Below, one piece after another: positions 22,063 through 53,648 of a DNA stretch of 64,000 bases. The notes beneath the pieces are model-generated. The model worked only from the letters and a program-made list of their open reading frames with translations. It did no database searches and had not been told where the DNA came from. Position 1 is the first letter of the stretch, and each line of letters opens with the position of its first letter. A program made the translations under genes and the position numbers. The stretch comes from Deltaproteobacteria bacterium (GTDB lineage Bacteria; Desulfobacterota; GWC2-55-46): positions 1,262-65,261 of the forward strand of contig JACRET010000001.1 in NCBI GenBank assembly GCA_016218105.1, read 5' to 3'.

Positions 22063-22066
22063 TGAT

Positions 22067-22645: not shown

Positions 22646-22655
22646 AGCAAAACTC

Positions 22656-23285: not shown

Positions 23286-23928
23286 CTTTTGACTCCTTGG
23301 GCTCCGCGCTCTCCGGGGCCTTTACAGCCGAAGCCGGTTTCGCCTCGAAAGCCGCGAGACCGTCTTTGGGGAACTCCCTTAAGACCTTCTGGACGGCATT
23401 GTTTATGTTCTTGACGACCGCGTCCGACGAGATAGTCGCGCCTGTGATGGACTGGATCTGGTTCGGCTTCTCGGGCTTCCGGTTCTTTATGTACTCTACC
23501 TTCGGGGTTATGTCGATGCCTTTGAACTGGTTCTCGAATTCAGGCTCGCTTATCCTGTTTCCAAGGCCTGGAGTCTCGACCTGGTCAAGTATCTTTATGC
23601 CTTTGAGCTTTAGATAATCAAGCCCCAGGCCTACCATGACCCCGATATTCCCCTGGAAACCGCCGCCGTCCGCCTTGAAAGCAAGCCCGACAGGCTTTCC
23701 TTCCCCGTCAATGCCTTCATACACGACTATCGTCTCCTGCCCAACCTTCTTCTCAAGGAGCTTGTAATCCTTCGCCTCGGGGAGGACGACGAAAATGGCC
23801 TCCTTGAGCTCCTTTTCCTTGTTGGCCTGTATCATCGGGTCGGCGACCTGGAAGACCCCGGCGAGTATTACGCCCGATATCGCGCCCACAAGCGTGAGGT
23901 TCAGAAACATTTTTGTTACATTATTCAA
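23272..23928 (-). CDS. rnfG: Rnf complex subunit G (FMN-binding)
   Basis: ETPGLG and ITGATISS flavinylation motif. Confidence 0.95.
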   Translation of the reverse strand: MNNVTKMFLNLTLVGAISGVILAGVFQVADPMIQANKEKELKEAIFVVLPEAKDYKLLEKKVGQETIVVYEGIDGEGKPVGLAFKADGGGFQGNIGVMVGLGLDYLKLKGIKILDQVETPGLGNRISEPEFENQFKGIDITPKVEYIKNRKPEKPNQIQSITGATISSDAVVKNINNAVQKVLREFPKDGLAAFEAKPASAVKAPESAEPKESKDGGK

Positions 23929-23958
23929 GAGTAAAACCCCTCCGGAAACTTAACTTGA

Positions 23959-24987: not shown

Positions 24988-25048
24988 GATAAACTCTATA
25001 ATCCCTTTTTTAAAGCCGGCTGTTCATCCCAGGGCTTAAGCCCTGGGG

Positions 25049-28635: not shown

Positions 28636-28686
28636 ATTGAAGCTCCCCGCGGCAAGCCGCGGGGGATGCGCTCGCTATGCATATTC
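28636..28686 (+). repeat. ~52-bp ATTGAAGCTCCC-hairpin repeat, copy 2
   Basis: attgaagctccccgcggcaagccgcgggggatgcgctcgctatgcatattc; perfect CCCCGCGGC-AA-GCCGCGGGG hairpin. Confidence 0.8.
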
Positions 28687-28711
28687 CATATGGGGTTTAT
28701 TAAAGGGGCAT

Positions 28712-31675: not shown

Positions 31676-34567
31676 TCAGGCATGCGCAGGCTTGAACCTT
31701 TTAAGCCTTAGTGAGTTGCTTACTACGCTTACCGAAGACAGCCCCATTGCCGCGGCGGCGAACATCGGGTCTAAAAGAACGCCGAAGAAAGGATAAAGTA
31801 TGCCTGCGGCTACGGGGATGAGCAGTACGTTATAGAAAAACGCCCAAAACAGGTTCTGCTTGATATTCCTGATAGTGGCCCTGCTCAGTGAAATGGCTGT
31901 AACGATAGACCGCAGGTCTCCGCCGATAAGTGTAATGTCCGACGCCTCCATCGCGACGTCGGTGCCTGTGCCAATGGCTATGCCGATGTCGGCCTCCGCG
32001 AGTGCGGGCGCGTCGTTTATGCCATCGCCTACCATCGCCACTATCTTGCCCTCGGCCTGGAGCTTTTTCACCTCTCTCGCCTTGTCCTCGGGCAAAACCT
32101 CGGAAAGCACCCTGTCTACGCCGATTTCCTTTCCGATGGCGTTTGCCGTCCTCCGGTTGTCGCCTGTGATGATAGCGACCAAGAGCCCCATGCGCTTGAA
32201 AGAGGCTATCGCCTCCTTCGAGAACTCCTTCAAGGTGTCGGCTACGGCGATCAATCCGGCGGCCTTGTTGCCAACGCTGAGGTAAATAGCGGTCTTGCCC
32301 TGGTCAGATAACCTGGCCGCGGCATCCTGCAGACTGCCTACCGCGATGCCGCTGTCGGCCATCATCTTGAAATTACCGAGGAACACACCCTTGCCGTCTA
32401 TTTCAGCCTTTATGCCGTGGCCCGGAACAGCCTCGAATAATGACGGGTCTTTAAGCTCTACCCCCCTTGCGGCGGCGTGCGCGACTATCGCCTCTCCCAC
32501 CGGATGCTCGGAGCCTTTCTCTGCTGATGCGGCGTAGAAGAGCAAGCTGTCCTCAGGCGACAAGCCTAGGCGCGATATTTCATTTAAAACATCTTTATCT
32601 TCCGTAAGCACGATATCGGTGAGCGACGGCTCTCCCCTGGTGAGGGTGCCTGTCTTGTCGAGCACTATCGCGTTTAATTTATGGGCGGTCTCAAGCGACT
32701 CCCCTCCCCTGATAAGTATCCCGTTCTCCGCGCCTTTGCCTGTGCCGACCATAATGGAGGTCGGGGTCGCGAGCCCCATCGCGCACGGGCATGCTATTAT
32801 CAGCACTGCTATGAAGTTCAAAAGCCCGTAAGTGAACGCGGGCTCAGGGCCGAATATGAACCATATGAAAAAGGTTATGACCGCCAGGACGATCACGGCC
32901 GGGACAAACCAGCTCGCTATGATATCCGCCAGCCTGGCTATCGGCGGCTTACTGCCCTGGGCCTCCTCCACCATCTTGATAATCTGTGAGAGCGTCGAAT
33001 CCTTTCCGACCCTTGTAGCCTTGTATTTAAAAGAGCCGGTCTTGTTTATCGTTGCCCCGACGACCTCGTCGCCCGACTTTTTGTCTACCGGCAGGCTCTC
33101 CCCGCTTATCATCGACTCGTCTATAGAGGAATAGCCCTCGATGACCCTGCCGTCCACGGGTATCTTTTCGCCCGGCCTTACTACGATGATATCTCCCTCG
33201 ACGGCCTCTGCCGCCGGGATGTCTTGCTCCCTGCCGCCTCGCACCACCCTTGCCGTCTTCGGCTGCATGCCGATGAGCTTCTTTATAGCTTCTCCGGTCT
33301 TGCCGCGCGCCCTCATCTCAAGGAGCCTCCCGAGGAGTATCAGTGCGATGATGGCGGTTGCGGTATCGAAGTAGACACCGGCATGGAAACCATGCACGCC
33401 AAAGTATTGCGGAAAAAAAGTCACGGCTGTACTGTAAAAATATGCCGCCGAGGTTCCGACGGCTATCAGGGTATTCATGTCCGTTGTCCTGTGGCGGGCC
33501 GAGGCGACGGCGCCCCTGTAGAACTGCCACCCTGCCCAGAACTGGACCGGCGTAGCCAATATGAACAGTAAATAGTTATTGCTGAGGATAGAGGGTATCC
33601 ATGAAAACCACTCTGAAAATGCCCCTGCCATGACAGGCACGGAGAGGACCGCGGCAAAAATAAATTTGGCGCGCGTCTTCTTGAACTCCTCCTTCTTTAT
33701 CCGCTCATCCCTCCCGAGCGCGTCCTCGTCCCCGGCCGGGGCGAGGGCCTTGTAGCCTATAGAGTTTATGGCCTTTACGAGGCCGTCAACGCCTATGATC
33801 GTCGGGAGGTAATTTATGGCCGCCTTTTCCGAAGCGAAGTTGACTGAGGCGCTTATGACGCCTTCGACCGAGTTTAAGGTCTTTGTTATCTTTTCAACGC
33901 ACGAGGCGCAGGACATGCCCTGAACAGGAATAGTAACGCTCGCCACCCCCGCACCGTACCCGAGCTCTTTGATGGTCTTTATGAAGTCCGTCAGGTGGAC
34001 TTCCTGAGGGTCATAGGAGATGCTTACCTTCCCGGCGGCAAAGTTGACGCTGGCCTCTCGTATGCCGCTTAAGGATACGAGCCCTTTCTCGATCTTGGCG
34101 GCGCATGAGGCGCAGGACATGCCTGTTATAGGCAGGTTTACCTTTTTAAGCCCTTTAGGGAGCGGCTTTTTATCTTCCGCGGAATGGACGTGGCCGTGGA
34201 TGGAACCTTTTTCTTTAGAGTCCTTGCCCGCCAGGTACTTTTCAGGCTCTCTTTGGAACTTTTCCCTGCAGTTAGGGTTGCAGAAATAATATGTTTCGCC
34301 CTTATAGGCATGCGTTCCGCCCTTCGGGTCGTTTTTGGGGACGGTCATGCCGCAAACAGGGTCTATAGCCTTCTCTTCCATATGCTCATCCGGCATTTTC
34401 AAGGCCCTGGCGCCGTCCGTATCCATAAAGGACGCTGTGTCCGCGTCAAATCTCTCCTTGCATCTAACGGCGCAAAAATAAATCTTCACGCCTTTGTAGA
34501 CGGACTCCCCCTTTGCCTTTCCTGGGGCTACTTCCATCCCGCAGACCGGGTCTCTTGCCATGTACAT
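31676..34567 (-). CDS. copA: Cu(+)-translocating P1B-type ATPase with two YHS and two HMA domains
   Basis: DPVCGM..YFC twice, GMSCASC twice, [26 protein letters not shown] and MGLSS. Confidence 0.93.
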
Positions 34568-34748
34568 CCTCCTGTTATCATATTATATCATACAGGTTTA
34601 ATGCCCTTCTACATTAAGTGAAAGGCAGGGCTCTGCGCAAGCCTTCAATAATCAATTCCTGACAAAAATTTAGTATTGTTTAAGGGTTATAACTATGTTA
34701 TCTTTTTTATATTAATGCCTGCCTAGAGAAGGGACTGAAGACGTTAGA

Positions 34749-35816
34749 ATGGACGAATACAGGATAGACAGCCATAAGTTGATTTTTCATGTCGAGCGGG
34801 TAAACGATTGGCTTAATAACGGCAATATCTACCCCATTTATATGGAAGTCTCCCCGGTCGGGGCCTGTAATCACAGGTGTACGTATTGCGCCCTCGATTA
34901 TATGGAATACCAGGCCCGTTCCCTCGACAGGGAAATCCTGAAAACAAGGCTTACTGAAATGGGGCGACTGGGGCTTAAGTCCATCATGTACGCCGGCGAA
35001 GGCGAACCCTTTCTCCACAAGCACATCGCGGAGATAATAAACCACACAAAAGAGTCCGGAATTGACGTCGCGATAACCTCCAACGGCGTCCTTTTTACCG
35101 AAAAGATAATGGAAGCCTCGCTGAAATCCATAACATGGATAAAGGTAAGCATAAACGCCGCCACAAAAGAGACCTACGCGAAGATCCACCGGACAAAGGA
35201 AGAGGATTTCGAGAGGGTACTGGACAACATCTCAAAAGCCGTGAAATTCCGCGCCGCTAACGGCCTTACATCCACGATAGGCATGCAGCTTATATTGCTC
35301 CCGGAAAACGTGAACGAGGCCGTGCTGCTCGCGAAAAAGGCCAAGGAAATCGGCGCGGACTACCTTGTCATAAAATCTTACTCCCAACACCTCAAGAGCC
35401 ATACAAGGCAATATGAGGACTTCAAATACAGAGACCACCTCCATCTGAACGACGAGCTTCAGAAGATATCCGATAACAGGTTTAAGGTGATCTTCAGAAG
35501 CAACGCCATGAGAAAGCTTGAGGAAAAAGGCAGGAATTACACCCATTGCCTGGCGCTCCCCTTCTGGTCCTACATAGATTCAGGCGGCGGCGTCTGGGCC
35601 TGCAGCGCATTTCTGAACGATGACAGGTTCCTGCTCGGAAATATAAACGAGAATACTTTCGAGGAGATTTGGAAGGGAGAGAAGAGGAAGCGCGTAATGG
35701 AGTTCGTCTCCAGGGAACTCGATACCAACGAATGCCGCAAGAACTGCAGGATGGATGAGGTAAACCGCTATCTCTGGGAGCTTAAAAACCCCTCACTGCA
35801 CGTCAACTTCATATAG
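34749..35816 (+). CDS. Radical SAM protein with SPASM/twitch domain
   Basis: CNHRCTYC, GEGEP, C-terminal C..(GGVWAC)..LGNI..IW..CRKNC. Confidence 0.9.
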   Translation: MDEYRIDSHKLIFHVERVNDWLNNGNIYPIYMEVSPVGACNHRCTYCALDYMEYQARSLDREILKTRLTEMGRLGLKSIMYAGEGEPFLHKHIAEIINHTKESGIDVAITSNGVLFTEKIMEASLKSITWIKVSINAATKETYAKIHRTKEEDFERVLDNISKAVKFRAANGLTSTIGMQLILLPENVNEAVLLAKKAKEIGADYLVIKSYSQHLKSHTRQYEDFKYRDHLHLNDELQKISDNRFKVIFRSNAMRKLEEKGRNYTHCLALPFWSYIDSGGGVWACSAFLNDDRFLLGNINENTFEEIWKGEKRKRVMEFVSRELDTNECRKNCRMDEVNRYLWELKNPSLHVNFI

Positions 35817-35838
35817 GCCCCCTAAAAAAACCAAGACA

Positions 35839-36870
35839 ATGATGAAAGACGAATTGATAAAATACGGGATAAAGACTGTCACCAGGACGATGCTCCTGCA
35901 GATGTATGCCTCGATGCTTAAAATACGCATGTTCGAGGAAAAGATAGTGGAGCTTTATCCGGAGCAGGAGATGAAGTGCCCGGTGCACCTGTGTATCGGC
36001 CAGGAAGCCATAGCCGCTGGCGTGTGCCTGAATCTAAGGAAAGAAGACTATGTTTTTTCCAACCACCGCGGACACGGGCATACTATCGCCAAAGGCGGCG
36101 CGTTAAGGCCGCTCATGGCCGAGTTTTATGGCAAGAAGACCGGATGCAGCAAGGGCAAAGGCGGCTCGATGCACATCATCGACGTGGACAACGGGATACT
36201 CGGCACCTCCGCGATAGTCGGCGGCGGCATACCGATGGGTGTCGGCGCGGCCCTTTCATCGGCATTAAGAAAGCAAGACCGCGTCACCGTAATATTTTTC
36301 GGGGACGGCGCCTACGACGAAGGGGTTTTCTACGAATCATTCAACTTCGCGTCCCTTAAAAAACTGCCCGTGGTATTTTTCTGCGAGAATAATTTTTACG
36401 CCACCAACTCACATCAGTCCGCCAGGCAGCCCGGCTGCAGGATATCGGACACCGCGTCGGCCTTTGACGCCCGCGGGACATGCATAGACGGAAACGACGT
36501 CCTTTCGGTCTACAAGGAATCGCAGGATGCCATAGCCCGCGCCAGACGCGGCGGCGGCCCGAGCCTGATAGAGGCAAAGACGTACAGATGGAAGGGGCAT
36601 GTCGGCCCGGAGGCCGATTATGAAAAGGGGTGCAGGCCGAAGGAAGAGCTCTTCTACTGGATAGAGCGGTGCCCGATAAAGAGGTTTAAGGAACTCCTTC
36701 TCCGTAAAGATGTAGCCACAGTAAAGGAGCTGGACGAGATCGCCGCGAAGTTGAGCGCGGAGATCGAGGATTCGGTGGACTTCGCCAAAAAAAGCGAATA
36801 CCCCGAGCTTTCAGAACTCCTTACCGATGTATACTACACTGGCGGCGGCGTGCCAAAGGAAAACAATTAA
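35839..36870 (+). CDS. ThDP-dependent dehydrogenase E1 alpha-like subunit
   Basis: HLCIGQEA, HRGHGH, GKGGSMH, GDGA..EG...CENN, TYRWKGH. Confidence 0.92.
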   Translation: MMKDELIKYGIKTVTRTMLLQMYASMLKIRMFEEKIVELYPEQEMKCPVHLCIGQEAIAAGVCLNLRKEDYVFSNHRGHGHTIAKGGALRPLMAEFYGKKTGCSKGKGGSMHIIDVDNGILGTSAIVGGGIPMGVGAALSSALRKQDRVTVIFFGDGAYDEGVFYESFNFASLKKLPVVFFCENNFYATNSHQSARQPGCRISDTASAFDARGTCIDGNDVLSVYKESQDAIARARRGGGPSLIEAKTYRWKGHVGPEADYEKGCRPKEELFYWIERCPIKRFKELLLRKDVATVKELDEIAAKLSAEIEDSVDFAKKSEYPELSELLTDVYYTGGGVPKENN

Positions 36871-36871
36871 G

Positions 36872-37924
36872 ATGCCGTGGACAAAGGTTTACAGCAATAA
36901 AACGGACTTTGAAAACGCCCTTAAAGACAATAAGGACTTAAGGGGCGTCACCTATAAATCCGCGATATTAGAGGCCACTTACCAGATGCTTGAGTCGGAC
37001 CCGGACGTTTTTGTCATCGGCGAAGGGGTCGATGATTCAGGCGGGGTCTTTGGCACCACAAAGGGCCTCCATGAAAAGTTCGGAAAAGAACGCGTAATGG
37101 ATATGCCTCTGGCGGAGAGCGGCCTTACCGGGGTCGCCGTAGGCGCCGCCATAGCCGGCATGAGGCCGATCCTCGTGCACATGAGGGTCGATTTCATCCC
37201 CTTGTCGATGGACCAGATCATAAACCACGCAGCGAAGTGGCATTACATGTTCGGCGGCAAGCTCAATGTGCCGATAGTCATAAGGTCGATTATCGGACGC
37301 GGCTGGGGCTCGGCCGCCCAGCACTCGCAGAGCTTCCCGTCCCTTTTTACGAATATACCCGGCCTGAAGGTCGTGATGCCCGCAACCCCCTATGACGCAA
37401 AGGGGTTGCTCATGGCCAGCGTATATGACGGGAACCCCGTCATCTCGATAGAGCACCGCTGGCTGTACGAACACATGGGCCATGTCCCTCTTGAGCCCTA
37501 TCAGGTCCCCATCGGCAAGGGGATCGTCAGGAGGCCGGGCAAAGACGCGACCATTGCAGCCATATCATACATGGTATACGAATCCATGCTGGCGGCTGAA
37601 GCTTTGAAGGCAGAGGGCATAGACGCCGAGGTGATAGATCTAAGGACTTTAAAGCCGCTTGATATGCCTCTCATACTGAACTCCGTCGCAAAGACCGGCA
37701 GGCTGGTCATAGCGGATACAGGCTGGAAGGAGACCGGCATAGGGTCTGAGATCATCGCGCGCGTAGTAGAAGATGGTTTCGATTCCCTGAAAGCCCCCGC
37801 GGAAAGGGTGAACCTCCCAGAGGTGCCCACGCCTGCGAGCCCGGTACTTGAAAAGGCGTACTACCCTGGGAAAAATGACATCGTGGCGGCTGTCAAGAGA
37901 ACACTTTCCCGAAAGCGCGGATGA
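36872..37924 (+). CDS. ThDP-dependent dehydrogenase E1 beta-like subunit
   Basis: GEGV..GGVFGTT, DMPLAES, AAQHSQS, PGLKVV.P, EVIDLRTLKPLD; start set at MPWTK (36872). Confidence 0.92.
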   Translation: MPWTKVYSNKTDFENALKDNKDLRGVTYKSAILEATYQMLESDPDVFVIGEGVDDSGGVFGTTKGLHEKFGKERVMDMPLAESGLTGVAVGAAIAGMRPILVHMRVDFIPLSMDQIINHAAKWHYMFGGKLNVPIVIRSIIGRGWGSAAQHSQSFPSLFTNIPGLKVVMPATPYDAKGLLMASVYDGNPVISIEHRWLYEHMGHVPLEPYQVPIGKGIVRRPGKDATIAAISYMVYESMLAAEALKAEGIDAEVIDLRTLKPLDMPLILNSVAKTGRLVIADTGWKETGIGSEIIARVVEDGFDSLKAPAERVNLPEVPTPASPVLEKAYYPGKNDIVAAVKRTLSRKRG

Positions 37925-37929
37925 TGTAA

Positions 37930-38697
37930 ATGGCGGCTGAGAAAAAGCGCAGACAAAAAGAGCCTAGCGTTTCTATTATCGTCCCCTGCCTGAATGAGGA
38001 AGGCAATTTACGGGGCACTATTGAGTCCATTAAAGAGGCGCTCGCCTCAGCCAAGGCCTTCAGCGATTACGAAATACTTATCTTTAACGATTTCAGCACC
38101 GACGGAACCGGCAAGCTCGCCGAAGAGATAAAGAAGACGGAAAAAGGGGTCAAGGTCATACACAACCCCAGGAACATGGGGTTTGGATATAATTACACGG
38201 AAGGGGTAAGGCTCGCCAGAAAAGACTATATAATAATGGTCCCCGGCGATAACGAGATACCCGCGGAGGCGATACGGCAGGTATTAAGCCAGGCCGGTGA
38301 GGCGGATGTCATCATACCATACACCGCGAACACGCATGTAAGGGCGCTCTCTAGAAGGGTGATATCAAAGCTCTTCGTAATAATAATAAACACCCTTTTC
38401 GGCCTTAACGTCATCTATTATAACGGCACCTGCCTTATAAAAAGCTCGCTCCTTAAAAAAGTCCCTCTCAAGACATGGGGGTTTGCCTACATGGCGGCGA
38501 TACTCGTGAGGCTCCTGCGTTCCGGGGCAAGCTACAGGGAAGTAGGGGTTGAGATAAAACCCAGGGCGAGCGGAAAGACAAAGGCATTCAGATTCAAGAA
38601 TATAATGAGCGTAGGGAGCGCGATAGCGTCATTGTTCTGGGAAGTGCGGATAAAGGAACGCTCAAGCTACAATAGCCCCAGAGGCGCGCGCGGATAG
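37930..38697 (+). CDS. Glycosyltransferase family 2
   Basis: SIIVPCLNEE, NDFSTDGT, NMGFG, VPGDNE, R.SG.TK. Confidence 0.9.
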   Translation: MAAEKKRRQKEPSVSIIVPCLNEEGNLRGTIESIKEALASAKAFSDYEILIFNDFSTDGTGKLAEEIKKTEKGVKVIHNPRNMGFGYNYTEGVRLARKDYIIMVPGDNEIPAEAIRQVLSQAGEADVIIPYTANTHVRALSRRVISKLFVIIINTLFGLNVIYYNGTCLIKSSLLKKVPLKTWGFAYMAAILVRLLRSGASYREVGVEIKPRASGKTKAFRFKNIMSVGSAIASLFWEVRIKERSSYNSPRGARG

Positions 38698-38738
38698 CTG
38701 AACAGACCTGATTTAAATTCCGTTAAGGATGGCTCTCT

Positions 38739-40235
38739 TTGAATATCCTCTTTGTCATAAAAGACGTCGAGTACATAGACCCGATGGGCATAATGCTTCT
38801 CTCGGCGCTCGCGAAGGAGAAGGGCCACAAGACCGCCGTAGCAGTATTGGCCAACGGCGACCTTGAAAAGGTTGTAATGTCGTTCAAGCCCGACATAGCG
38901 GCCTTCAGCGCAAAGACCGGGGAGCACAAATATTATATCGCCGCCAACGAAGTCATCAAGGGCCTCTCCAAAGACATCTTTACGGTCATAGGCGGCCCTC
39001 ACGCGACGTTCTTCCCCGAGATTATAGATAAATACCCTTTTGACGCCTTATGCGCCGGAGAAGGCGACGACGCCTGGCCCGAGCTGTTGACGGCCCTCGA
39101 ACGCAAGACCTCTTTTGACAATATCCCGAACATCGTAACGAAGAACAATTACAGGAAAGACAAGCCCCCCTTCATAAGGCAGAGGAGAAGGGAGCTCGAC
39201 GACCTGCCGTTCCTCGACAGGGAGCTCTTCTATTCAACCACGCGCCTCGGCAGATTCCCCATGCGCTCCTTCATGGTCGGCAGAGGATGCCCGTATAAAT
39301 GCACATACTGCTTCAATCACAAGTACAACATGCTCTATAAGGGCAAAGGCCCGCTGGCCTCGCGCATGTCCGTAGACAGGATAATAGCAGAGCTAAAGAC
39401 GCTAAAGAACAGTTACGAGACGCAGTTCATCAAGTTCTACGACGATATCTTCGTAATGAAGGACGACGAATGGCTCGACGAGTTCTCGGAAAAGTACGCC
39501 AGGGAAATCGGCATCCCCTTCCATTGCCTTATGAGGGCGAACCTCCTTACGGAATCGATCCTCATCAAGCTTAAAAAGGCCGGGCTCTCTTCCATGAGCA
39601 TGTCGATAGAGAGCGGCAACGATAACATAAGGAATGAAGTATTGAAGCGGAACATGACAAAAGAGACCATGACCGACGCCTTCGACCTTTGCTTCAAGCA
39701 CGGCATACCGACCTTTTCAAACACGATATTCGCGATACCAGGCACCTCGCTCTCAGAAGACATAGAGTCGCTCGATTTCAATCTGAGGTGCAGGGTGACC
39801 CTCGGCGAGTTTCCGGTCTTTTTCCCCTACCCCGAGACCGAGCTTGCGAATTACGCCATAAAAAGGGGGGATTTTGACGGCGACTTCAACAAGCTCCACA
39901 TGAGCTATCAGTCGACCTCTCCCCTCAGTTGCTTTACCGACAAGGAAAAGATGGAGCAGCTGAACCTTTCCATGCTTTCGACCGTCTGCCTGTGGAAGCC
40001 GTCGCTCAGGAACCTGATCGTGAACAGGCTTATCAAGCTCCCTTTGCCGAGGCTCTACTTCCTGATGTACTATTTCGTAAAGGCTTATCTGGTAAAGACG
40101 AAGATATACCCGATGAAGTTCTCATTCGTAAATACGGTACGCGGCATATACGAGAGCTTCATCCTTGAGAACTTCAAGCACTCTGAGGAGATAATCACCG
40201 AAAAGGAGGGCCTTAAGGCCGTAAAGGGTAAATAG
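38739..40235 (+). CDS. Cobalamin-binding radical SAM protein (class B-like)
   Basis: PMGIMLLSA, GGPHAT, GEGD, RGCPYKCTYC, DDIF, IESG, PYPET; TTG start. Confidence 0.9.
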   Translation: MNILFVIKDVEYIDPMGIMLLSALAKEKGHKTAVAVLANGDLEKVVMSFKPDIAAFSAKTGEHKYYIAANEVIKGLSKDIFTVIGGPHATFFPEIIDKYPFDALCAGEGDDAWPELLTALERKTSFDNIPNIVTKNNYRKDKPPFIRQRRRELDDLPFLDRELFYSTTRLGRFPMRSFMVGRGCPYKCTYCFNHKYNMLYKGKGPLASRMSVDRIIAELKTLKNSYETQFIKFYDDIFVMKDDEWLDEFSEKYAREIGIPFHCLMRANLLTESILIKLKKAGLSSMSMSIESGNDNIRNEVLKRNMTKETMTDAFDLCFKHGIPTFSNTIFAIPGTSLSEDIESLDFNLRCRVTLGEFPVFFPYPETELANYAIKRGDFDGDFNKLHMSYQSTSPLSCFTDKEKMEQLNLSMLSTVCLWKPSLRNLIVNRLIKLPLPRLYFLMYYFVKAYLVKTKIYPMKFSFVNTVRGIYESFILENFKHSEEIITEKEGLKAVKGK

Positions 40236-40736
40236 GTGACAGTCAAAGACCATGTGATACTCAGTAGCGCCGCTTCCCTGGCGCTCTGGACGGAGCTGGG
40301 CTTTGACGCGATCTTTTTCTGGGTTGCCGCCATCGGCATAGATCTCGACCATTATATAGATTACATCTGGCATAACGGCTTCACGGACTTCGGCATTAAG
40401 AAGATGTTCCTTTACCACCACGTCCTTGAGCGGTTCTGGGGACGGTCCGAGTTCTTGAACGTTGTAATCTTCCATACGGTGGAATTCGTAGCGCCTCTTT
40501 TTGTCATATCGTACTGGACAGGCTCCACGGCGCTCTTTGCCCTCTCTTTGGGGCTTACGTTTCATATAGCGTGCGATATCGTTTTTTTACTCAGGCTCAG
40601 GATATTCCTTATACGGGCGCACTCTTTTACGGAGTACTTCATAAGGAAGCGCCGTTTTGAGAACAGGGGCCTGAAACCGGGGTCCGTATTCGCCGAGGCC
40701 ATAAAAATTGTAAATGAAACCGGCGGGGAAATATGA
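40236..40736 (+). CDS. Membrane protein, putative metal-binding (H..DLDH..H..H..D pattern)
   Basis: Hydrophobic helices with DH, IDLDHY, FHTVE and FHIACD; GTG start adjacent to the upstream stop. Confidence 0.7.
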   Translation: MTVKDHVILSSAASLALWTELGFDAIFFWVAAIGIDLDHYIDYIWHNGFTDFGIKKMFLYHHVLERFWGRSEFLNVVIFHTVEFVAPLFVISYWTGSTALFALSLGLTFHIACDIVFLLRLRIFLIRAHSFTEYFIRKRRFENRGLKPGSVFAEAIKIVNETGGEI

Positions 40737-40772
40737 GATACTTTGCCGAAAAGACCGCGTTGAGAGGTTGGA

Positions 40773-41702
40773 ATGGGAACGACTGAGAAGGTACTGATAA
40801 TAAAGCTCGGATACTCGGAGACCCTTGTCGGGGAGATAAGCAGAAAGACAAGCCTCGGCGACGTGCTGCGGTCAACCGTGCTTTTAAATCTCTTTAAGAA
40901 CGCCAACGTGACATGGCTTGTTGATGAAAAGGCGATATCCCTTCTCAAGGGAAATCCGCTAATAAACCGCATAATGCCCTATGACCTGACCACAGTCCTC
41001 CAGCTTAAGGCAGAGAGGTTCGACACCATCATAAACCTTGAGAAGGTCGCTGGCATCTGCGCGTTCGCGGACTCGCTTACCGCATGGAGGCGTTTCGGTT
41101 TCAGGTTCGATCCTGAAACAGGCAGCGCCATGGCCTATGACGGGAGCCAGCACGTTTTAGAGCTTTGCATGAGCCAGAAGGACAAGCTCGCGAACAAAAA
41201 ATACTGGGAAGACTTCCTCTTTGAGATGGTCGGCGCCAAGTGGCAGGGAGAGATACCCACTATCGGCTACAAGCCGTCCTCGAAAGAGATATTCGACATA
41301 GGCTTTAACCACAATGTCGGCGAGAAGTGGCCGATAAAGGCGTGGCCCCCTGAATACTGGAAGGAGCTTGAGGCCCTTATCGACGGGAAATACACGATAT
41401 CATGGCAGCAGGGGCTTAAGTCCATTGAGGAATACATAGAGTGGATCAACTCGTGCAGGCTGCTGGTCACGAACGACAGCCTCGGGCTCCATATAGCCCA
41501 CGCGCTCAATAAAAAGGTGGTAACGCTTTTCGGCCCCACCCTTTCGACCGAGGTGTATGTAAAAAACGGCGTCAAGCTCCTGCCCGACGCCGTTTATGAC
41601 TGCATGCCCTGCCTGTCCACGACCTGCGTAAAGGAAAGGCCGTGCATGTTTGAAATAAAGCCTGCCAGAGTTCTTTCAGAGATAGATAAATTACTTGGCT
41701 AG
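40773..41702 (+). CDS. Glycosyltransferase family 9 (heptosyltransferase-like)
   Basis: LIIKLG..LGDVLRST, KAWP, TNDSLGLHIAHAL, LFGPT, CMPC...C....CM. Confidence 0.88.
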   Translation: MGTTEKVLIIKLGYSETLVGEISRKTSLGDVLRSTVLLNLFKNANVTWLVDEKAISLLKGNPLINRIMPYDLTTVLQLKAERFDTIINLEKVAGICAFADSLTAWRRFGFRFDPETGSAMAYDGSQHVLELCMSQKDKLANKKYWEDFLFEMVGAKWQGEIPTIGYKPSSKEIFDIGFNHNVGEKWPIKAWPPEYWKELEALIDGKYTISWQQGLKSIEEYIEWINSCRLLVTNDSLGLHIAHALNKKVVTLFGPTLSTEVYVKNGVKLLPDAVYDCMPCLSTTCVKERPCMFEIKPARVLSEIDKLLG

Positions 41703-41712
41703 AGAGGTGGAT

Positions 41713-42588
41713 ATGAAGGACTTGAAACCTATTGCAATACCGGAACACTACAACTATATCGCCGCTTTCATGACCCTTGCCTGCAATCTCTCATGCAGCT
41801 ATTGCATAAACCACTTCGGCAAGGACGGCTTCGTGAAAAAGAGGCTTACGGGAGAGGAATGGGTAAGAGGCCTTAACAGGATAGTGTCGAGGGAAGACCT
41901 TCCGATAACGCTCCAGGGAGGCGAGCCGAGCCTGCACAAGGACTTCATATACATACTTAACAATATAAAGCCTGAGCTTAACATAGACATACTTACGAAC
42001 CTCCAGTTCGACGTTGACGAATTCATAAAAAAGGTAGACCCGAAACGGATCAGGAGAAATTCTCCCTACGCCTCTATAAGGGTCAGCTACCACCCCGAGG
42101 TGATGAAGCTTGAGCCTCTGGTGGAAAAAGTCCTCAAGATGCTTGAAGCGGGGTTCTCGATCGGCATATGGGGCGTACTCCACCCTATCCAGGAGGAAAC
42201 GGTAAGGCAGGCCCAGAAGCACTGCCAGGCGCTTGGTATAGACTTCCGCTTTAAAGAGTTCCTTGGCGAGCATAACGGAAAGATGTACGGGACTTACAGG
42301 TACGAGGGGGCTTGCGACCAGAAGTTTGAAAAGTCTGTCCTCTGCAAAACCACTGAGCTTATAATGGGCAGCGACGGCTCCGTATACCGGTGCCACAGCG
42401 ACCTTTACGAGGGGCGCACCCCTGTCGGCAACATCATCGACCCCGCTTTCGACATAGAGGATATCTACAGGCCCTGCCATGTGTTCGGGCACTGCAACCC
42501 GTGCGACATCAAGGTCAAGACAAACAGGTTCCAGGAGTTCGGCCATACGTCAGTAGAGATAGAGGATATGCCTGTAGAGCACAAGTAA
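41713..42588 (+). CDS. Radical SAM protein
   Basis: CNLSCSYC, GGEP, LTNL, C-terminal C..YRCH..C..CNPCD; ATG behind GAGGTGG. Confidence 0.88.
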   Translation: MKDLKPIAIPEHYNYIAAFMTLACNLSCSYCINHFGKDGFVKKRLTGEEWVRGLNRIVSREDLPITLQGGEPSLHKDFIYILNNIKPELNIDILTNLQFDVDEFIKKVDPKRIRRNSPYASIRVSYHPEVMKLEPLVEKVLKMLEAGFSIGIWGVLHPIQEETVRQAQKHCQALGIDFRFKEFLGEHNGKMYGTYRYEGACDQKFEKSVLCKTTELIMGSDGSVYRCHSDLYEGRTPVGNIIDPAFDIEDIYRPCHVFGHCNPCDIKVKTNRFQEFGHTSVEIEDMPVEHK

Positions 42589-42618
42589 GGAACTGCAGAC
42601 CGCGTAAAAACAGTATTG

Positions 42619-42650
42619 AAAGGCAGGCATTCGTGTCCTGCCTTTTTTTT
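42619..42650 (+). terminator. Intrinsic terminator ending the radical SAM/GT cluster
   Basis: AAAGGCAGG-cattcgtgt-CCTGCCTTTTTTTT. Confidence 0.8.
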
Positions 42651-42704: not shown

Positions 42705-44360
42705 TCACCTCTTAAGACGCTTAAGCGCGTCCTCCGCGTATTTATAATCAGGCCATCTCGCAAGTATGTATTTAAACTCCGCTTCAGCTTCCGGCTTTAA
42801 CCCCTTTTTCATATATAATACCCCAAGGTTATAGGAAGGTTCCGGATTGCCAGGGTCGAGCCCCTTCAAGATTCGCGCCTCGCCGATGGCCTCAGCGGTC
42901 ATCCCCAGCGAATCGTAATATTTTACCAGCGTGCGGCGGACATACCGCGACTTCGGGTTTATTTCCTCCGCCTTTTTAAACTCCTCTAACGCCTCGCCGT
43001 GTCTTTCTATCTCGTAATATTTCATTCCAAGATACATATGCGGGCTTACGGAGTAAGGGTTCTTTTTCACCTCGTCCTCGTAGAGCCGCAACGGTACCCT
43101 CCAAAGCTCATTCCTGAAATAAGCGGCAAACGAGAGCGGCACAGCCAGCGCAAGCAAAAGAAACGTCATCAATATCTTCCGCCTGCCCCGGCTCAGGGAG
43201 TCTTCCATATATAAAACCGCTGTAACAAACGACAGCATGATCCCTGCCGATGGGAGATAAACCCTGTGCTCGTTTATGGCATCCCTGATGGGTATTACCG
43301 AGGATTCGACGGAGAGGGTGATAAAAAACCATAACACCCCGAATGATATGATAGACCCGTAGGCATTCCCTTTCATTATGGAGAAGGCAAACATATATAT
43401 GGAGGCGCCGATGAATAAAACAACGGCAATTAAGGGGCCAGACACCCCCGGGTCAAAGACCGATTCCGCAAGCGGGAAATAATACGTAAAATGCTGATCC
43501 ACTGGTAAGATCAAAAGCCTTAAATAGACAAGTATCGCCTGCGGCTCCGTTATCAGGTAATTATACCTGGAGATGGTGAACGCCTCCTCCAGCTTTCGGA
43601 CCCGCATCAGCTCGTCGACCGTATTCACTGCCCCGGTACCCGGGATGACCATGCTTAGAGGTATTATCAGGAGCGTTAAGAAGAACGGCAAGAGGCGTTT
43701 GCCCCTCCCCTCACCTTTCGGAAAGAATGAGAACTCCACGAGAGTCAAGATGAAGGGCAGCGTAAAGCTTATCTCCTTCGACTTCATTGCGAGGACGGCT
43801 GAAAGGACAGCCCCTGCGTAAAGGAGCCTGCCTTTTGTACCCCCCGGTATTCCTGTCCTTGCCTTTAGATAAAGAACCAGAGACAAAAGATAGAAAAGGG
43901 TCGCGAGAGACGTGTATCTCTGGCTTATATAAGAGACCGCCTGTGTCTGTACAGGGTGCGTAAGGAAGTATACCGATGTCGCGAGAGCGGCCGCAAAGGG
44001 AAAAATCTCCCTATCCTTAATATTCGTCTTTATAAAAGGCGTCTCGAAGAGAGCCTTTATAAGCTTAAACACAAGGGCCGAATTGGCTATGTGGATCAAT
44101 ATATTGACGAGGTGATAACCGAACGGATCAAGGCCGGAGAGCTTGTAATTCAAAGCGAAACTGAGGTCTCCAGCATACCTAACGCCGGACACATCCAGAA
44201 AATTCCATAGAGACCTTATCCAGGGCGCCTCCGTAACATACGCCCTGTCATCGAATACGAAATCGCCGAAAAGAGCATTTGAATAGATTATTAGGCCGAG
44301 AGGCAGTAATACGAGATACAAACGGTTACAAGTTATGATTTTTTCATATAGTGTCTTCAA
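42705..44360 (-). CDS. TMTC-like GT-C membrane glycosyltransferase with TPRs
   Basis: FVFDD, YHLVNILIH, HPVQTQAV, KSKEIS, EHRVYLPS, RNELW, TPR tail; directly downstream of pilA. Confidence 0.8.
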   Translation of the reverse strand: MKTLYEKIITCNRLYLVLLPLGLIIYSNALFGDFVFDDRAYVTEAPWIRSLWNFLDVSGVRYAGDLSFALNYKLSGLDPFGYHLVNILIHIANSALVFKLIKALFETPFIKTNIKDREIFPFAAALATSVYFLTHPVQTQAVSYISQRYTSLATLFYLLSLVLYLKARTGIPGGTKGRLLYAGAVLSAVLAMKSKEISFTLPFILTLVEFSFFPKGEGRGKRLLPFFLTLLIIPLSMVIPGTGAVNTVDELMRVRKLEEAFTISRYNYLITEPQAILVYLRLLILPVDQHFTYYFPLAESVFDPGVSGPLIAVVLFIGASIYMFAFSIMKGNAYGSIISFGVLWFFITLSVESSVIPIRDAINEHRVYLPSAGIMLSFVTAVLYMEDSLSRGRRKILMTFLLLALAVPLSFAAYFRNELWRVPLRLYEDEVKKNPYSVSPHMYLGMKYYEIERHGEALEEFKKAEEINPKSRYVRRTLVKYYDSLGMTAEAIGEARILKGLDPGNPEPSYNLGVLYMKKGLKPEAEAEFKYILARWPDYKYAEDALKRLKR

Positions 44361-44539: not shown

Positions 44540-44947
44540 TCAGGGTGAGTTGGCGAATACGATCCTGCCGTTAAAGAATACTACAGTGTTGTTGTCGGTA
44601 AGACCGGCTGCTGTTGTCTTAAGCTCGACGTTGCCCGATGTAAGGTTCATACCACCGTTTACGAAGCTTACGTTAACAGACTTCTGGTAACCGCCAGATT
44701 TAAGCTTGGCAAGGCCGTTGGTGCTGTCCACAGACTGTGCCGGGTTATCGGTAAGATAAGCCTGAGCAGCTGTGTACGCGTTCTTTGCGTCTGAATCGAG
44801 CTCTGTCTTGTACCCTCTCAGCCTGTACTTTGTAAACTGCGGGATGGCGATGGCGGCAAGTATGGCGATGATAGCGACGACTATCAAAAGCTCAACCAGC
44901 GTGAAGCCTTCCTCCCTCTTGATCCTCTTTAGCATCTGTTGCAGCAT
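44540..44947 (-). CDS. pilA: Type IVa major pilin
   Basis: Prepilin G|FTLVELLIVVAIIAILAAIAIPQF; own sigma54 promoter and terminator; inside the pil locus. Confidence 0.92.
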   Translation of the reverse strand: MLQQMLKRIKREEGFTLVELLIVVAIIAILAAIAIPQFTKYRLRGYKTELDSDAKNAYTAAQAYLTDNPAQSVDSTNGLAKLKSGGYQKSVNVSFVNGGMNLTSGNVELKTTAAGLTDNNTVVFFNGRIVFANSP

Positions 44948-45036: not shown

Positions 45037-45052
45037 AGCAACATCTATGCCA
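45037..45052 (-). promoter_or_regulatory. Sigma54 -24/-12 promoter of pilA
   Basis: Minus strand TGGCATAGATGTTGCT (GG-N10-GC). Confidence 0.85.
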
Positions 45053-45116: not shown

Positions 45117-45152
45117 TGACAATTTTTGTCAGTGTATTGACAATTTTTGTCA
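45117..45152. promoter_or_regulatory. Tandem palindromic upstream activator sites (putative PilR boxes)
   Basis: TGACAATTTTTGTCA at 45117-45131 and 45138-45152, 21 bp apart, upstream of the sigma54 promoter. Confidence 0.7.
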
Positions 45153-45216
45153 GTGAGGGCAGGGTTTGTGGGGGGGGCAAGCTCGTAGCGATGGGATACG
45201 CTCGCAATGACAAATC

Positions 45217-45330
45217 AATTCAATTACCCTGCCATAAATGGCAGGGATTGTCGGCAAGGTACTTTGTTTCTTTCGTATAGCCCGGCTTTGACCCGCCCTA
45301 AAAGGGCGGGATTCCGCCGGGCACCCGATT
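45217..45330. repeat. ~110-bp double-hairpin repeat, copy 2
   Basis: Matches 5612-5722; overlaps the last codons and stop of CDS 45298..47088. Confidence 0.85.
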
Positions 45331-47088
45331 AATGGGTATATCCATGAATCTGCCGCAGCCATCCATATCCCGTTCCAAACAGGATCTTTTAATCCCTGTT
45401 ACAACCTCTTTCATTAAAGGGCTCTTGATGAATTCGGAAAAACCGGGGTAGATTACAGCGGCCTGGTCAAAGTCCTTTAAAGCCTCCTTGTGCCTGCCTG
45501 AGGCCGCGTATGAGATGCCGCGGTTCAGGTATACGATCTCGTAATCACGGTTAAGGGCAAGCGCGGCGCTGAATGACTCTATGGATCTCCTGTGGTCTCC
45601 CAGCCCGGAATACGCCACCCCCCTGAGATTATGCGCCTCGGCTATCTTCGGGTTCATCGAGAGGACCTTATCCGCGTCGTAGAGCGCCTCGGCAAACTTG
45701 TTCTTCTTGAGATTAAGCAGACCCCTGAAGTAATAGAGCCTCGATTTACCGGGGGACTTCCCGATAGAATCGTTAAGGAGCGCCATCTCATCGTTCCATA
45801 CGTTATTTCTCAAGTAAAGCGAGGTGAAGAGCGCCGGGCACAAAATAATGAGCAGCCCGGCAGTCAATACCTTATACGAAATCTTTTTCTCCCTCTTTGA
45901 ATTCAGATATTCGACTGTCCAGAAAACCAGCGAAACAAAGGAGATTAAAAGTCCGACGCTCGGGAGATAAACCCTGTGCTCATATATGAAATCCTGTATA
46001 GGGACAAGGGTGGATTCTACCGATAGGGTTAAAAAGAACCAGAAGACCCCGAAAGGGAAAAGATGCCCCCAGATATTTCCTGTTTTACGGGAAGACCTTA
46101 GAACAAAAAAAGAAATTAAAATGAGAGATGAAAGGAATAAGAAAGACATGAAAGCGGGAGGGTCGAATAAAGACGTCGATACCGGGTAATCGTATTCAAG
46201 CCTCTGCCCTACAGGGAGCAGAAGGAGCCGTATATATGTTACTACCACCTTTAGCTCGGTGAAGAAATAAACGCTCCTGGGGAGCCTCGCGGCCTCGTTT
46301 ATCTGCAGATTCCTCAGGTGCTCGGCGCTTGCGTTATAGTTACCGAAAATCCCGATATCAGGCCCCAGGAGAGTAAGGGGTATTATGACCAGAGTAAAAT
46401 AAAAAGGTATCCTGTAGCGCGCGGAACTCTTTATCTCGGGCCGGAAGAAGACGAACTCATAGAGCGCGATGGCGAATGGCAGCGTAAAGCTTATCTCCTT
46501 TGTCTTCATCGCTATAACGGCCGAGAGCAACGACCCTGCGTAGAAGAGCCGGTTCGCCGTCCCCCCTTTGCCTTGCGCCCAGCCGATCCTCGCCTTCACG
46601 TAAAGAAGCACTGATGATATATAAAAAAAAGCCGCCAGCGAGGTAAACCTCTGGGTCACGTAGCTTACGGCCTGTGATTCTACCGGGTGAGAGAGGAAGA
46701 TAACCGCCGCGATGAATGCGGCATAAACAGAGACCTCATCACTGGCATGTATTCCCTTTATGAAAGGCGTGCGGAAGGTATTTCTTACAAGAGAGAAGAC
46801 AAGAATGGAATTGAGTACGTGTATGAGTATGTTGACGAGATGGAAATCAAACGGGACGAGGCCGCCGGTAGAGTAGTTGAGGGCAAAGCTCAAAAAACCG
46901 ATATACCTTGTGCCTGAGAGGTCCAGAAAATTACCGAGAGACCTTATCTGCCGGTTCGCGAGGACATAAGCCTCGTCATCGTAGACGAAAGGCGCGTTCA
47001 GCACGTTTGAGTACAACAGCACACCCAAAGGGATGAGGAGTAAAGGCAGATATTTAAGGAAGATTTTTTTATCGGGAATATTTTTCAT
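45298..47088 (-). CDS. TMTC-like GT-C membrane glycosyltransferase with TPRs
   Basis: FVYDD, FHLVNILIH, HPVESQAV, KTKEIS, EHRVYLPS, RNNVW, TPR tail; clear paralog of 42705..44360. Confidence 0.8.
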   Translation of the reverse strand: MKNIPDKKIFLKYLPLLLIPLGVLLYSNVLNAPFVYDDEAYVLANRQIRSLGNFLDLSGTRYIGFLSFALNYSTGGLVPFDFHLVNILIHVLNSILVFSLVRNTFRTPFIKGIHASDEVSVYAAFIAAVIFLSHPVESQAVSYVTQRFTSLAAFFYISSVLLYVKARIGWAQGKGGTANRLFYAGSLLSAVIAMKTKEISFTLPFAIALYEFVFFRPEIKSSARYRIPFYFTLVIIPLTLLGPDIGIFGNYNASAEHLRNLQINEAARLPRSVYFFTELKVVVTYIRLLLLPVGQRLEYDYPVSTSLFDPPAFMSFLFLSSLILISFFVLRSSRKTGNIWGHLFPFGVFWFFLTLSVESTLVPIQDFIYEHRVYLPSVGLLISFVSLVFWTVEYLNSKREKKISYKVLTAGLLIILCPALFTSLYLRNNVWNDEMALLNDSIGKSPGKSRLYYFRGLLNLKKNKFAEALYDADKVLSMNPKIAEAHNLRGVAYSGLGDHRRSIESFSAALALNRDYEIVYLNRGISYAASGRHKEALKDFDQAAVIYPGFSEFIKSPLMKEVVTGIKRSCLERDMDGCGRFMDIPINRVPGGIPPF

Positions 47089-50745: not shown

Positions 50746-50751
50746 CCCGTT

Positions 50752-52416: not shown

Positions 52417-52421
52417 TTTCT

Positions 52422-53645: not shown

Positions 53646-53648
53646 CGC

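Follow-up and report, generated by a model that had tools for sequence, protein, structure and literature searches.

An eight-gene radical SAM, thiamine diphosphate enzyme and glycosyltransferase operon facing a type IV pilin locus: a candidate sugar-tailoring cassette

The operon and the pilus gene string that it faces

The window analysed here is a stretch of 64 000 nucleotides from a deltaproteobacterium (GenBank assembly GCA_016218105.1, contig JACRET010000001.1), the plus strand of which carries an operon of eight co-directional open reading frames (ORFs; 34749–42588), here termed g1–g8, that converges on a type IV pilin gene and that we describe as a candidate pathway for an unusual surface sugar. 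The first gene, g1 (34749–35816), encodes a radical S-adenosylmethionine (SAM) enzyme with matches to Radical_SAM (PF04055, 76.7 bits) and to SPASM (PF13186, 38.1 bits against a threshold of 21.5), the latter placing an auxiliary Fe–S domain at its C-terminus. It is followed by g2 (35839–36870; E1_dh PF00676, 237.5 bits) and g3 (36872–37924; Transket_pyr PF02779 and Transketolase_C PF02780), which resemble the α and β chains of a thiamine diphosphate (ThDP)-dependent E1 enzyme, and by g4 (37930–38697), which encodes a short family 2 glycosyltransferase (GT2) of 255 residues (Glycos_transf_2 PF00535, 91.7 bits). The product of g5 (38739–40235) combines an N-terminal B12-binding domain (PF02310, 41.5 bits against 32.1) with a radical SAM core (PF04055, 73.9 bits against 29.5), the combination that defines class B radical SAM enzymes. 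The last three genes encode a small membrane protein of 166 residues that belongs to no family (g6, 40236–40736, beginning at the base directly after the g5 stop codon), a divergent protein of GT-B type resembling glycosyltransferase family 9 (GT9) (g7, 40773–41702; Glyco_transf_9 PF01075, 43.4 bits) and a further radical SAM enzyme (g8, 41695–42588; PF04055, 35.7 bits). These Pfam assignments bear out the gene identities given in the original prediction, which had been made from the letters of the window and a list of its ORFs and had proposed that the operon makes a branched, methylated sugar for pilin or lipopolysaccharide (LPS).

The operon is tightly packed, with no intergenic gap above 41 nt. 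The successive gaps from g1 to g7 are 22, 1, 5, 41, 0 and 36 nt when g3 is counted from Met16, and g7 and g8 overlap by 8 nt. The g3 ORF itself opens at 36827; the ATG at 36872 (Met16 of that ORF) is more likely to be the true start because orthologues align only from residues 3–16 onwards and because this codon lies 1 nt after the g2 stop. An intrinsic terminator, with a GGCAGG/CCTGCC stem followed by T8, lies on the plus strand at about 42618–42650, 30 nt past the g8 stop codon. The predicted fold has an energy of −17.2 kcal/mol and a z-score of −3.3, and the hairpin had been missed by a consensus terminator scan; it is possibly shared with the convergent gene. The coordinates, the gaps and the hairpin with its T-tract thus agree with the predicted transcription unit with its own terminator. 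Upstream, the intergenic region between g1 and the divergent copA (34568–34748) is presumed to hold the operon promoter; the only sigma-70-like match there (34555–34584) is weak and does not indicate function. The G+C fraction of the operon genes (0.49–0.55) matches that of the remainder of the window, and an interpretation as a horizontally acquired island was set aside on this ground. No NDP-sugar dehydratase or epimerase domain is found by Pfam among the eight operon proteins, as had been noted before.

On the opposite strand the operon faces a string of genes running from 56584 down to 42705 in the order pilB, pilT, pilC, histidine kinase, response regulator, a gene for a 749-residue protein, a gene for a 596-residue protein, pilA and a gene for a 551-residue protein. 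The first five (49345–56584) comprise pilB, pilT, pilC, a pilS-like kinase gene and a pilR-like sigma-54 response regulator gene; in NCBIfam, PilB (811.6 bits) and the PilT family (491 bits) score above their cut-offs, PilC (570 bits) scores under its cut-off of 700 and the kinase matches as a histidine kinase. The pilA gene (44540–44947, minus strand) encodes a type IV prepilin of 135 residues recognized by its N_methyl motif and by PilA-type matches in Pfam and NCBIfam. Together with the 551-residue tetratricopeptide repeat (TPR) membrane protein (42705–44360, minus strand), it is what the operon converges on, as originally described. The pilin is cysteine-free, so that it is without the usual C-terminal disulfide loop, and an alignment of ten orthologues shows a conserved C-terminus ending in F-A-N-S/T-P. 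A sigma-54-like element (TGGCAT-N5-TTGC) is found upstream of pilA at 45038–45052 on the minus strand; the pattern occurs 38 times across the window against 48 expected, which is not above chance, and only the position of this copy upstream of pilA is suggestive.

Glycosyltransferases of GT-C fold around pilA

Three genes for large TPR-containing membrane proteins lie around pilA on the minus strand: the 551-residue protein downstream of it (42705–44360), the 596-residue protein upstream (45298–47088) and the 749-residue protein (47112–49361), whose gene shares its first 17 nt with the end of the pilR-like gene. The original prediction had called its pilA-flanking genes GT-C glycosyltransferase genes. 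Pfam finds TPR repeats only in the three proteins, with PMT_2 undetected, and returns nothing useful for their N-terminal membrane domains at E values up to 1; the label therefore needed evidence from the fold. AlphaFold2 models were used for the 596-residue (pLDDT 81.7) and 749-residue (pLDDT 79.1) proteins. A Foldseek search of the Protein Data Bank (PDB) with the 596-residue model returned TPR matches only, and the GT-C fold surfaced only with an exhaustive structural aligner, by which residues 4–436 superimpose on Pmt1–Pmt2 with a Z score of 22.2 (363 residues, r.m.s.d. of 4.5), followed by Pmt4 (21.2), AglB (19.6), ArnT (18.9), STT3 (18.4) and PglB (17.5). Residues 3–498 of the 749-residue model match STT3 best (Z score of 20.7 over 448 residues), followed by AglB (18.8), PglB (18.6), Pmt (17.4) and ArnT (17.3). 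Thus, both models support the GT-C label. The two proteins share no BLAST similarity outside their TPR parts and represent two types. The 551-residue protein, which likewise has hydrophobic segments and TPR repeats, is assigned to the GT-C enzymes by homology to its 596-residue paralogue (42% identity and a common DD motif); Asp37 and Asp38, the two acidic residues of this motif near the N-terminus, show no variation among 15 sequences of the 596/551 type. Leads from the Atlas for the 596-residue protein are PMT_2 and TMTC.

GT-C enzymes use lipid-linked donors. Elsewhere in the window, a second unit on the minus strand (12984–15413) consists of a gene for a DPM1/PpgS/AglJ-like GT2 (14631–15413) that directly precedes a gene for a GT-C/TPR homologue of 543 residues (12984–14615), which is 26% identical to a pilA-flanking protein (E value of 1e-29) and carries the same FxWDD-type motif. 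This suggests that pairs of a GT2 and a GT-C/TPR protein are a repeated design in this genome. The genome (2.9 Mb) has 16 matches to the GT-C/TPR family, and relatives have up to 19; copies include three in tandem on contig C82 (4656–9611) and others at C5:54987–56258 and C86:27316–28581.

A published precedent for the arrangement at pilA is TfpW, in which a GT-C domain is followed by TPR repeats at the C-terminus; its gene lies immediately downstream of pilA, and pilin glycosylation requires the protein (bioRxiv 10.1101/2020.04.19.049825). The proteins described here share with this enzyme of the Pseudomonas aeruginosa group IV pilins a GT-C domain, a DD-type motif (in the 596/551 type), a C-terminal TPR region and a gene beside pilA, a likeness of architecture and gene position. 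They differ in that TfpW moves D-arabinofuranose from a DprE-type route, whereas three GT-C/TPR genes of two types are present here.

The neighbourhood recurs within the order to which the genome belongs. A convergent pilA lies at most 5.3 kb away in 13 of the 16 order-level loci that extend at least 5.7 kb beyond g8, and a GT-C/TPR gene of the 749-residue type adjoins pilA in many relatives. Among eight GT-C/TPR stretches from relatives without a g5 orthologue, pilA stands beside a GT-C/TPR gene only on one short contig (L114); the genome concerned (G029) does carry g7, so this comparison of contexts lacking g5 says little.

Conservation and enzyme families of the cassette

The order-level sample comprised 41 relatives, and 18 loci were retrieved around g5 orthologues. 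The order g1–g8 is kept in all 18 with 49–89% identity, apart from losses of g6. One of these loci (L029) ends after g5, which leaves 17 that extend beyond it. A g5 orthologue (66–83% identity) is present in 30 of the 41 relatives and a g7 orthologue also in 30, with one or the other in 31; neither was found in the remaining ten, among them all four genomes of family f2. The cassette is single-copy in the genome studied here.

Beyond the order, g7, which is the most conserved gene of the cassette, was used as its marker. A g7 profile search of contigs from one genome per species yielded 122 stretches, of which 80 were kept. Those from outside the order carry the labels Planctomycetota (anammox genera included), Omnitrophota, Nitrospirae/Nitrospirota, Nitrospinota, Geobacteraceae, Desulfuromonadaceae, Deferrisomatales, Sulfuricella and Novimethylophilus; records from the order itself are labelled as metagenome-assembled genomes of Deltaproteobacteria or Thermodesulfobacteriota. 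Two records labelled Candidatus Saccharibacteria (L070 and L071) have g7 proteins 68–72% identical to that of the window, a similarity on a par with that of the order's own members, and may reflect a binning error and not an occurrence in the candidate phyla radiation.

The distant sample consisted of 34 loci beyond the order, many of which end at contig ends. These contain g7 (33 loci), a g1-type radical SAM/SPASM gene (28), g8 (25), a short GT2 gene (23), genes for E1 α and β (16) and genes for the N-terminal (12) or C-terminal (eight) half of a split transketolase. The usual order is g7, g1, ThDP enzyme, GT2, second radical SAM/SPASM gene and g8. As the set is retained in shuffled order, its persistence points to selection on the set, and hence to functional linkage, and not to inherited synteny. 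The genes around the distant cassettes include classical sugar genes (encoding RmlD-like reductase, NAD epimerase/dehydratase, DegT aminotransferase and carbamoyltransferase) as well as genes for methyltransferases, GT4 enzymes and polysaccharide deacetylase. The original prediction was to fall if its genes were not conserved together or if they matched a characterized LPS core or cofactor pathway. Joint conservation is found in all 18 order-level loci, and a shuffled core is found under several phylum labels; none of the eight proteins reaches an NCBIfam equivalog cut-off. Full-text searches of the literature directed at the cassette turned up no account of it, and a paper on the S-layer glycan of Kuenenia (PMC5088730) contains neither 'radical' nor 'gene cluster' in a term search of its text.

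The nearest solved chains to g1 in a PDB sequence search are viperin, BlsE and DesII (E values of about 1e-6). Its NCBIfam matches all lie far under their cut-offs, and its orthologues in the 18 loci are 56–83% identical. For g5 the matches are AprD4, a diol dehydratase (1.7e-14), and the methylases TokK (5.8e-7) and CysS (2.7e-4). In these matches, g1 (viperin, BlsE and DesII) and g5 (AprD4) resemble enzymes of small molecules and sugars. The resemblance to DesII, BlsE and AprD4 is limited to the radical SAM core, with E values of only 1e-5 to 1e-14 and no NCBIfam cut-off reached. The predicted role of g1 is a radical oxidation, dehydration or epimerization of a sugar or nucleotide sugar, and g5 may act either in methylation or, like AprD4, as a dehydratase. 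The g5 position is variable, with most distant loci carrying a second radical SAM/SPASM gene in its place. The matches of g8 (SkfB and QueE) are weak; its C-terminal region is rich in cysteines and SPASM/twitch-like by the cysteine pattern read from the sequence, with no Pfam SPASM match. These findings favour the earlier idea of an unusual sugar. Its specifics of a branched, methylated product stay conjectural; AprD4 stands ahead of TokK and CysS among the g5 matches. BtrN, which we take as a model for the keto-forming step, is absent from the PDB search matches. For g6, which has hydrophobic segments at residues 73–94 and 98–126, neither Pfam nor NCBIfam gives a match at E values up to 1; an Atlas lead to YdjM-like proteins (TM score of 0.56; 13% of one cluster) was not used as an assignment. 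Its pattern of losses marks g6 as an apparently dispensable accessory gene.

The PDB matches of the GT2 enzyme g4 include GtrB, DPMS and ArnC (E values of 1e-8 to 4e-5), intermixed with other GT2 enzymes, and its NCBIfam matches are AglJ, PgfS, ArnC, a Dol-P-hexose transferase and PpgS, all under cut-off. We predict it to be a polyprenyl-phosphate sugar synthase of the DPM1/GtrB/ArnC kind. The proposal that this GT2 loads a lipid carrier for transfer to pilin or LPS therefore gains from its GtrB/DPMS/ArnC relatives and from the GT-C enzymes beside pilA as far as the carrier is concerned; the acceptor is where that proposal stays conjectural. The setting recalls the three-component systems ArnC/ArnE–F/ArnT, GtrB/GtrA/GtrC and DPM1/PMT: a DPM1/GtrB/ArnC-like GT2 adjoins GT-C transferases, the folds of these match PMT, ArnT, STT3, AglB and PglB, and a second GT2 and GT-C/TPR pair is present in the window. 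In contrast to those systems, the cassette has no recognizable flippase, its GT2 lacks C-terminal helices, its sugar chemistry would depend on radical SAM and ThDP enzymes instead of dehydrogenase and aminotransferase steps, and its additional GT9-like enzyme has no counterpart.

That enzyme, g7, exceeds the gathering threshold of PF01075 (22), with a match confined to profile positions 173–242 in the C-terminal part, and profile searches match it to a Veillonella GT9 (PDB 3tov) and to WaaF. It scores 39.9, 39.6 and 30.5 against the WaaC, WaaF and WaaQ equivalogs (cut-offs of 134.6, 185.3 and 170.2), none of which is reached. An orthologue alignment reveals invariant SLGD and TNDSLGLH motifs, near the N- and C-termini, respectively, and four invariant cysteines; the two motifs presumably correspond to those of heptosyltransferases. 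In a scan of the genome g7 is the weakest (35.9 bits) of nine GT9 matches. Five canonical GT9 genes (92–171 bits) lie together with the best PMT_2 match in an LPS-core-like cluster on another contig (C65), from which g7 lies apart. Thus, its family membership, profile matches and motifs link g7 to WaaC and WaaF, and its scores below the equivalog cut-offs, its position outside the core cluster and its radical SAM partners in place of LPS genes separate it from them; g7 does not appear to be a canonical core heptosyltransferase. The names given to its relatives in a collection of 5.8 billion proteins are only generic ('glycosyltransferase family 9' and 'heptosyltransferase').

Against the model for the α chain of pyruvate dehydrogenase (PDH) E1 (TIGR03182), g2 scores 329.5, under the cut-off of 393.85; g3 scores 341.6 against NF006667 (cut-off of 321), a model at subfamily level, and is the only operon protein to pass such a model. 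Pfam finds no E2 domain in the operon, so that g2 and g3 have no E2 or E3 partner there, and the PF00198 (E2) matches of the genome lie on contig C16 beside a different E1 and, as a fragment, on contig C47. A second E1 pair, on contig C99, shares 52% identity with g2 and 54% with g3, compared with only 29% and 41% for the PDH-like copy on C16. It sits between a gene for an aldo-keto reductase, directly before it, and a DegT gene. In a maximum-likelihood tree of 25 E1 α sequences, the C99 sequence nests with cassette E1s from five labels (clade support of 96/95) and the PDH-like C16 sequence lies on a branch of length 7; as the tree was rooted at its midpoint and has one very long outgroup branch, it is used only to say 'same family, not PDH'. 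The absence of an E2 from the operon, the paralogue in a glycan locus and the placement in the tree are the reasons for which we read g2/g3 as a sugar enzyme, apparently belonging with the E1s of sugar loci and not with PDH.

The whole of the C99 locus (L119, 1–13905, in the genome studied here, G000) encodes, in order, a DegT protein, a GFO/IDH/MocA oxidoreductase, a hexapeptide acyltransferase, a GT4, a methyltransferase, a Bac_transf protein, the aldo-keto reductase, E1 α and β, the second DegT protein and a PglF/CapD-type dehydratase fusion. With its AviB-type pair, this locus is a candidate for making a C2-branched sugar similar to yersiniose or paulomycose in a Gram-negative bacterium.

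Precedents for E1-like pairs of this kind come from antibiotic biosynthesis. In two reports, AviB1/AviB2 and Pau11/Pau12 are PDH-like pairs proposed to transfer a C2 unit from pyruvate to a keto sugar, and the resulting acetyl branch is reduced by Pau7, an aldo-keto reductase (PMC4425429, PMC4753412). Judged by gene context and these published descriptions, the likeness of g2/g3 to the avilamycin and paulomycin pairs consists of an E1 α/β pair without E2 and E3 among sugar and glycosyltransferase genes, and that of the C99 paralogue to the Pau system consists of its position directly after an aldo-keto reductase gene in a classical glycan locus. Unlike the Streptomyces pathways, in which ordinary NDP-sugar dehydratases supply the 4-keto sugars, the cassette has three radical SAM enzymes and no dehydratase, and a split transketolase takes the place of the E1 in other cassette lineages. 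From this exchange the ThDP step appears to be constant and the enzyme exchangeable between lineages, either E1 or transketolase, which speaks for a C2 transfer, yet the products may differ between lineages.

A possible pathway, its alternatives and further features of the window

We consider it probable that the cassette is a surface-glycan sugar pathway of some kind. Our preferred and more specific reading, on which our judgement is evenly divided, is that the operon represents a version of a widespread but uncharacterized sugar-tailoring cassette that works without oxygen and supplies GT-C/TPR transferases with a lipid-linked donor, the pilin being the likely acceptor here. The genes and their domains, their close linkage and joint conservation, the GT-C folds and the kinship of the E1 pair are established by the sequences and models; in the scheme that follows we infer every chemical step, the order of the steps, the carrier and the acceptor. 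A SPASM/twitch-type radical SAM enzyme (g1 or g8) would turn a hydroxyl group of a sugar, free or linked to a nucleotide or lipid, into a ketone by oxidation or dehydration, thereby standing in for the missing NDP-sugar 4,6-dehydratase. After the ThDP step, g5 and the remaining radical SAM enzyme would add further tailoring by deoxygenation, methylation or epimerization. The GT9-like g7 and the DPM1-like g4 would mount the sugar on a polyprenyl-phosphate carrier and, once flipped, the carrier-linked sugar would serve the periplasmic GT-C/TPR transferases as donor. For this lipid-carrier route to GT-C enzymes taken by itself, we see the chances as balanced. The likeliest acceptor here would be the type IV pilin flanked by GT-C/TPR genes, as with TfpW in P. 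aeruginosa; the pilin as acceptor in this organism is a tentative assignment that we place somewhat below an even chance.

Several observations weigh against this reading. The predicted linkage of the cassette to pilA holds within the order and fails elsewhere: the adjacency is confined to this one order, the members of which are kin and not independent cases, a prepilin-motif ORF is present in only one of the 34 distant loci and the cassette is not pilin-specific there. The GT-C/TPR family occurs in 40 of the 41 relatives, including nine of the ten in which neither g5 nor g7 was detected, which shows that this family is independent of the cassette. In the operon there is neither a nucleotide-sugar activation gene nor a recognizable flippase gene, and the lack of any equivalog match among its eight proteins noted above counts here too. 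A small membrane protein such as g6 is not a fixed component, since it was not detected in six of the 17 order-level loci extending past g5, in which the gap between g5 and g7 is 32–223 nt. No hydrophobic segment is found in g4 beyond residue 163 of 255, so that the C-terminal membrane helices of GtrB and ArnC are lacking; some forms of DPM1 likewise lack them. A scheme with a monophosphate carrier leaves the place of g7 unexplained. The E1 and transketolase versions of the cassette would move different C2 units, so that its lineages may make different products, and the rooting of the E1 tree limits what can be drawn from it.

In one alternative the cassette decorates LPS. Here, the GT9-like enzyme would add the tailored sugar to the inner core on the cytoplasmic side, or an Arn-like route (GT2 followed by GT-C) would decorate lipid A, and the neighbourhood of pilA would be synteny kept by descent, with no bearing on function. 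The LPS core is the best-known setting of GT9 enzymes, which keeps an LPS target in play, and g7 is a GT9 by Pfam with profile matches to WaaF and the Veillonella enzyme; the relatives of g4 include ArnC, the GT-C proteins have ArnT as one of their fold matches, and the confinement of pilA adjacency to kin, with no pilin-gene linkage in 33 of the 34 distant loci, is what this alternative would lead one to expect. However, the genome already holds the LPS-core-like cluster with its five canonical GT9 genes, with g7 lying apart from it and being the weakest match, and the GT-C genes adjacent to the operon lie inside the pilus string, one of them overlapping pilR. Their best fold matches are the protein-modifying PMT, STT3 and AglB, although ArnT comes next within a few Z units. 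We regard a role in LPS as unlikely.

A second alternative retains the lipid-linked donor and widens its use, such that the sugar would serve many of the expanded GT-C/TPR paralogues in general O-glycosylation of periplasmic and surface proteins, with the pilin at most one target among many. It is favoured by the 16 GT-C/TPR matches in the genome, including a tandem of three on C82, and by the spread of the family through the relatives. In 12 of the 34 distant loci a GT-C/TPR gene adjoins g7 with no pilin gene present, and in a Planctomycetota locus (L073) a PMT_2 gene follows g8; the leads from the Atlas, PMT_2 and the eukaryotic TMTC with its architecture of GT-C and TPR parts, are in keeping with it. 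Yet the cassette is single-copy and in this order stands beside the pil cluster and not beside other paralogues, many GT-C/TPR genes occur in genomes in which the cassette is undetected, and the other GT2 and GT-C/TPR pair in the window suggests that each GT-C enzyme may have its own donor supply. A general donor thus seems improbable to us. A third possibility, that the radical SAM and ThDP enzymes act in the synthesis or tailoring of a membrane lipid (hopanoid- or ladderane-like) or in the maturation of a cofactor or peptide, with the glycosyltransferases only adding a head group, is very unlikely: g5 weakly matches a B12 radical SAM family for ladderane-type lipids (83.5 bits against a cut-off of 360), HpnJ and HpnR, g1 weakly matches HpnH and peptide or cofactor maturases, g4 weakly matches HpnB and the cassette occurs in anammox-labelled genomes, but all such NCBIfam matches are several-fold under their cut-offs, the distant cassettes are embedded among nucleotide-sugar and glycosyltransferase genes, Pfam finds no precursor peptide, squalene–hopene cyclase or fatty-acid gene in the operon, and many of the labels under which the cassette occurs are, to our knowledge, not known for ladderanes. 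The hopanoid, ladderane and ribosomally synthesized peptide readings were set aside for the distance of their matches from these cut-offs.

If the preferred reading of a sugar-tailoring cassette with a lipid-linked donor is true, the gene set, found in records bearing the labels of at least five phyla of largely uncultured anaerobes, marks a way to unusual surface sugars that needs neither oxygen nor the dehydratase and epimerase reactions of the textbooks. It would join the orphan PDH-E1-like pairs outside Streptomyces, the radical SAM enzymes of glycan loci and the expanded GT-C/TPR proteins of environmental bacteria. It would also predict a glycosylated type IV pilin in this lineage, with a bearing on pilus function, surface attachment and phage recognition, and its enzymes would be new tools for sugar chemistry. 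At its most far-reaching, and here we are doubtful, the cassette may represent an anaerobic pathway, as yet undescribed, to sugars with a carbon branch or an extended chain. A radical SAM dehydrogenase would make the keto sugar in place of the NDP-sugar 4,6-dehydratase, and an E1- or transketolase-like ThDP enzyme would add a C2 unit, possibly to a membrane-bound polyprenyl-phosphate sugar and not to a nucleotide sugar. The cassette would then be a dedicated donor supply for a large, unstudied TMTC/PMT-like family of GT-C/TPR protein O-glycosyltransferases, including pilin-modifying enzymes in groundwater Thermodesulfobacteriota. New in the present analysis are the fold evidence for two types of GT-C protein flanking pilA inside the pil string, the paired GT2 and GT-C/TPR genes elsewhere in the window, the E1 paralogue with an aldo-keto reductase in the C99 glycan locus and the counts that dissociate the GT-C family from the cassette.

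A repeat of about 90 nt that is dispersed through intergenic regions, and whose palindromic core is CCCTGCCATTTATGGCAGGG followed by TAATTGAA, is present upstream of pilA (45145–45305) and at 5540–5700 and 5787–5947, in each case on the minus strand. Genome-wide there are 45 copies with at most three mismatches, 24 of them exact, compared with none for a reversed control, and some variants preserve the hairpin through paired changes. The repeat looks like an element of the repetitive extragenic palindrome or miniature inverted-repeat transposable element type, or like a common regulatory site.

The window also contains genes for electron transfer and cytochrome maturation. On the minus strand, a set for system II cytochrome c biogenesis (15791–21000), encoding CcsB, a ResA-like thiol-disulfide oxidoreductase and a DsbD-like protein, together with a match to a CYCXC-family (seleno)protein and a TPR protein, lies just downstream of an rnfCDGEAB operon (21208–26377). 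In a Geobacter-labelled locus (L090), genes for ResB and CcsA lie between a GT-C/TPR gene and g7. Between htrA and copA, a gene on the plus strand (28637–29851) encodes a multihaem cytochrome of 404 residues that carries a pair of c7-type triheme 'nanowire' domains (TIGR04257, 132 bits), and this gene stays near the operon in several relatives.

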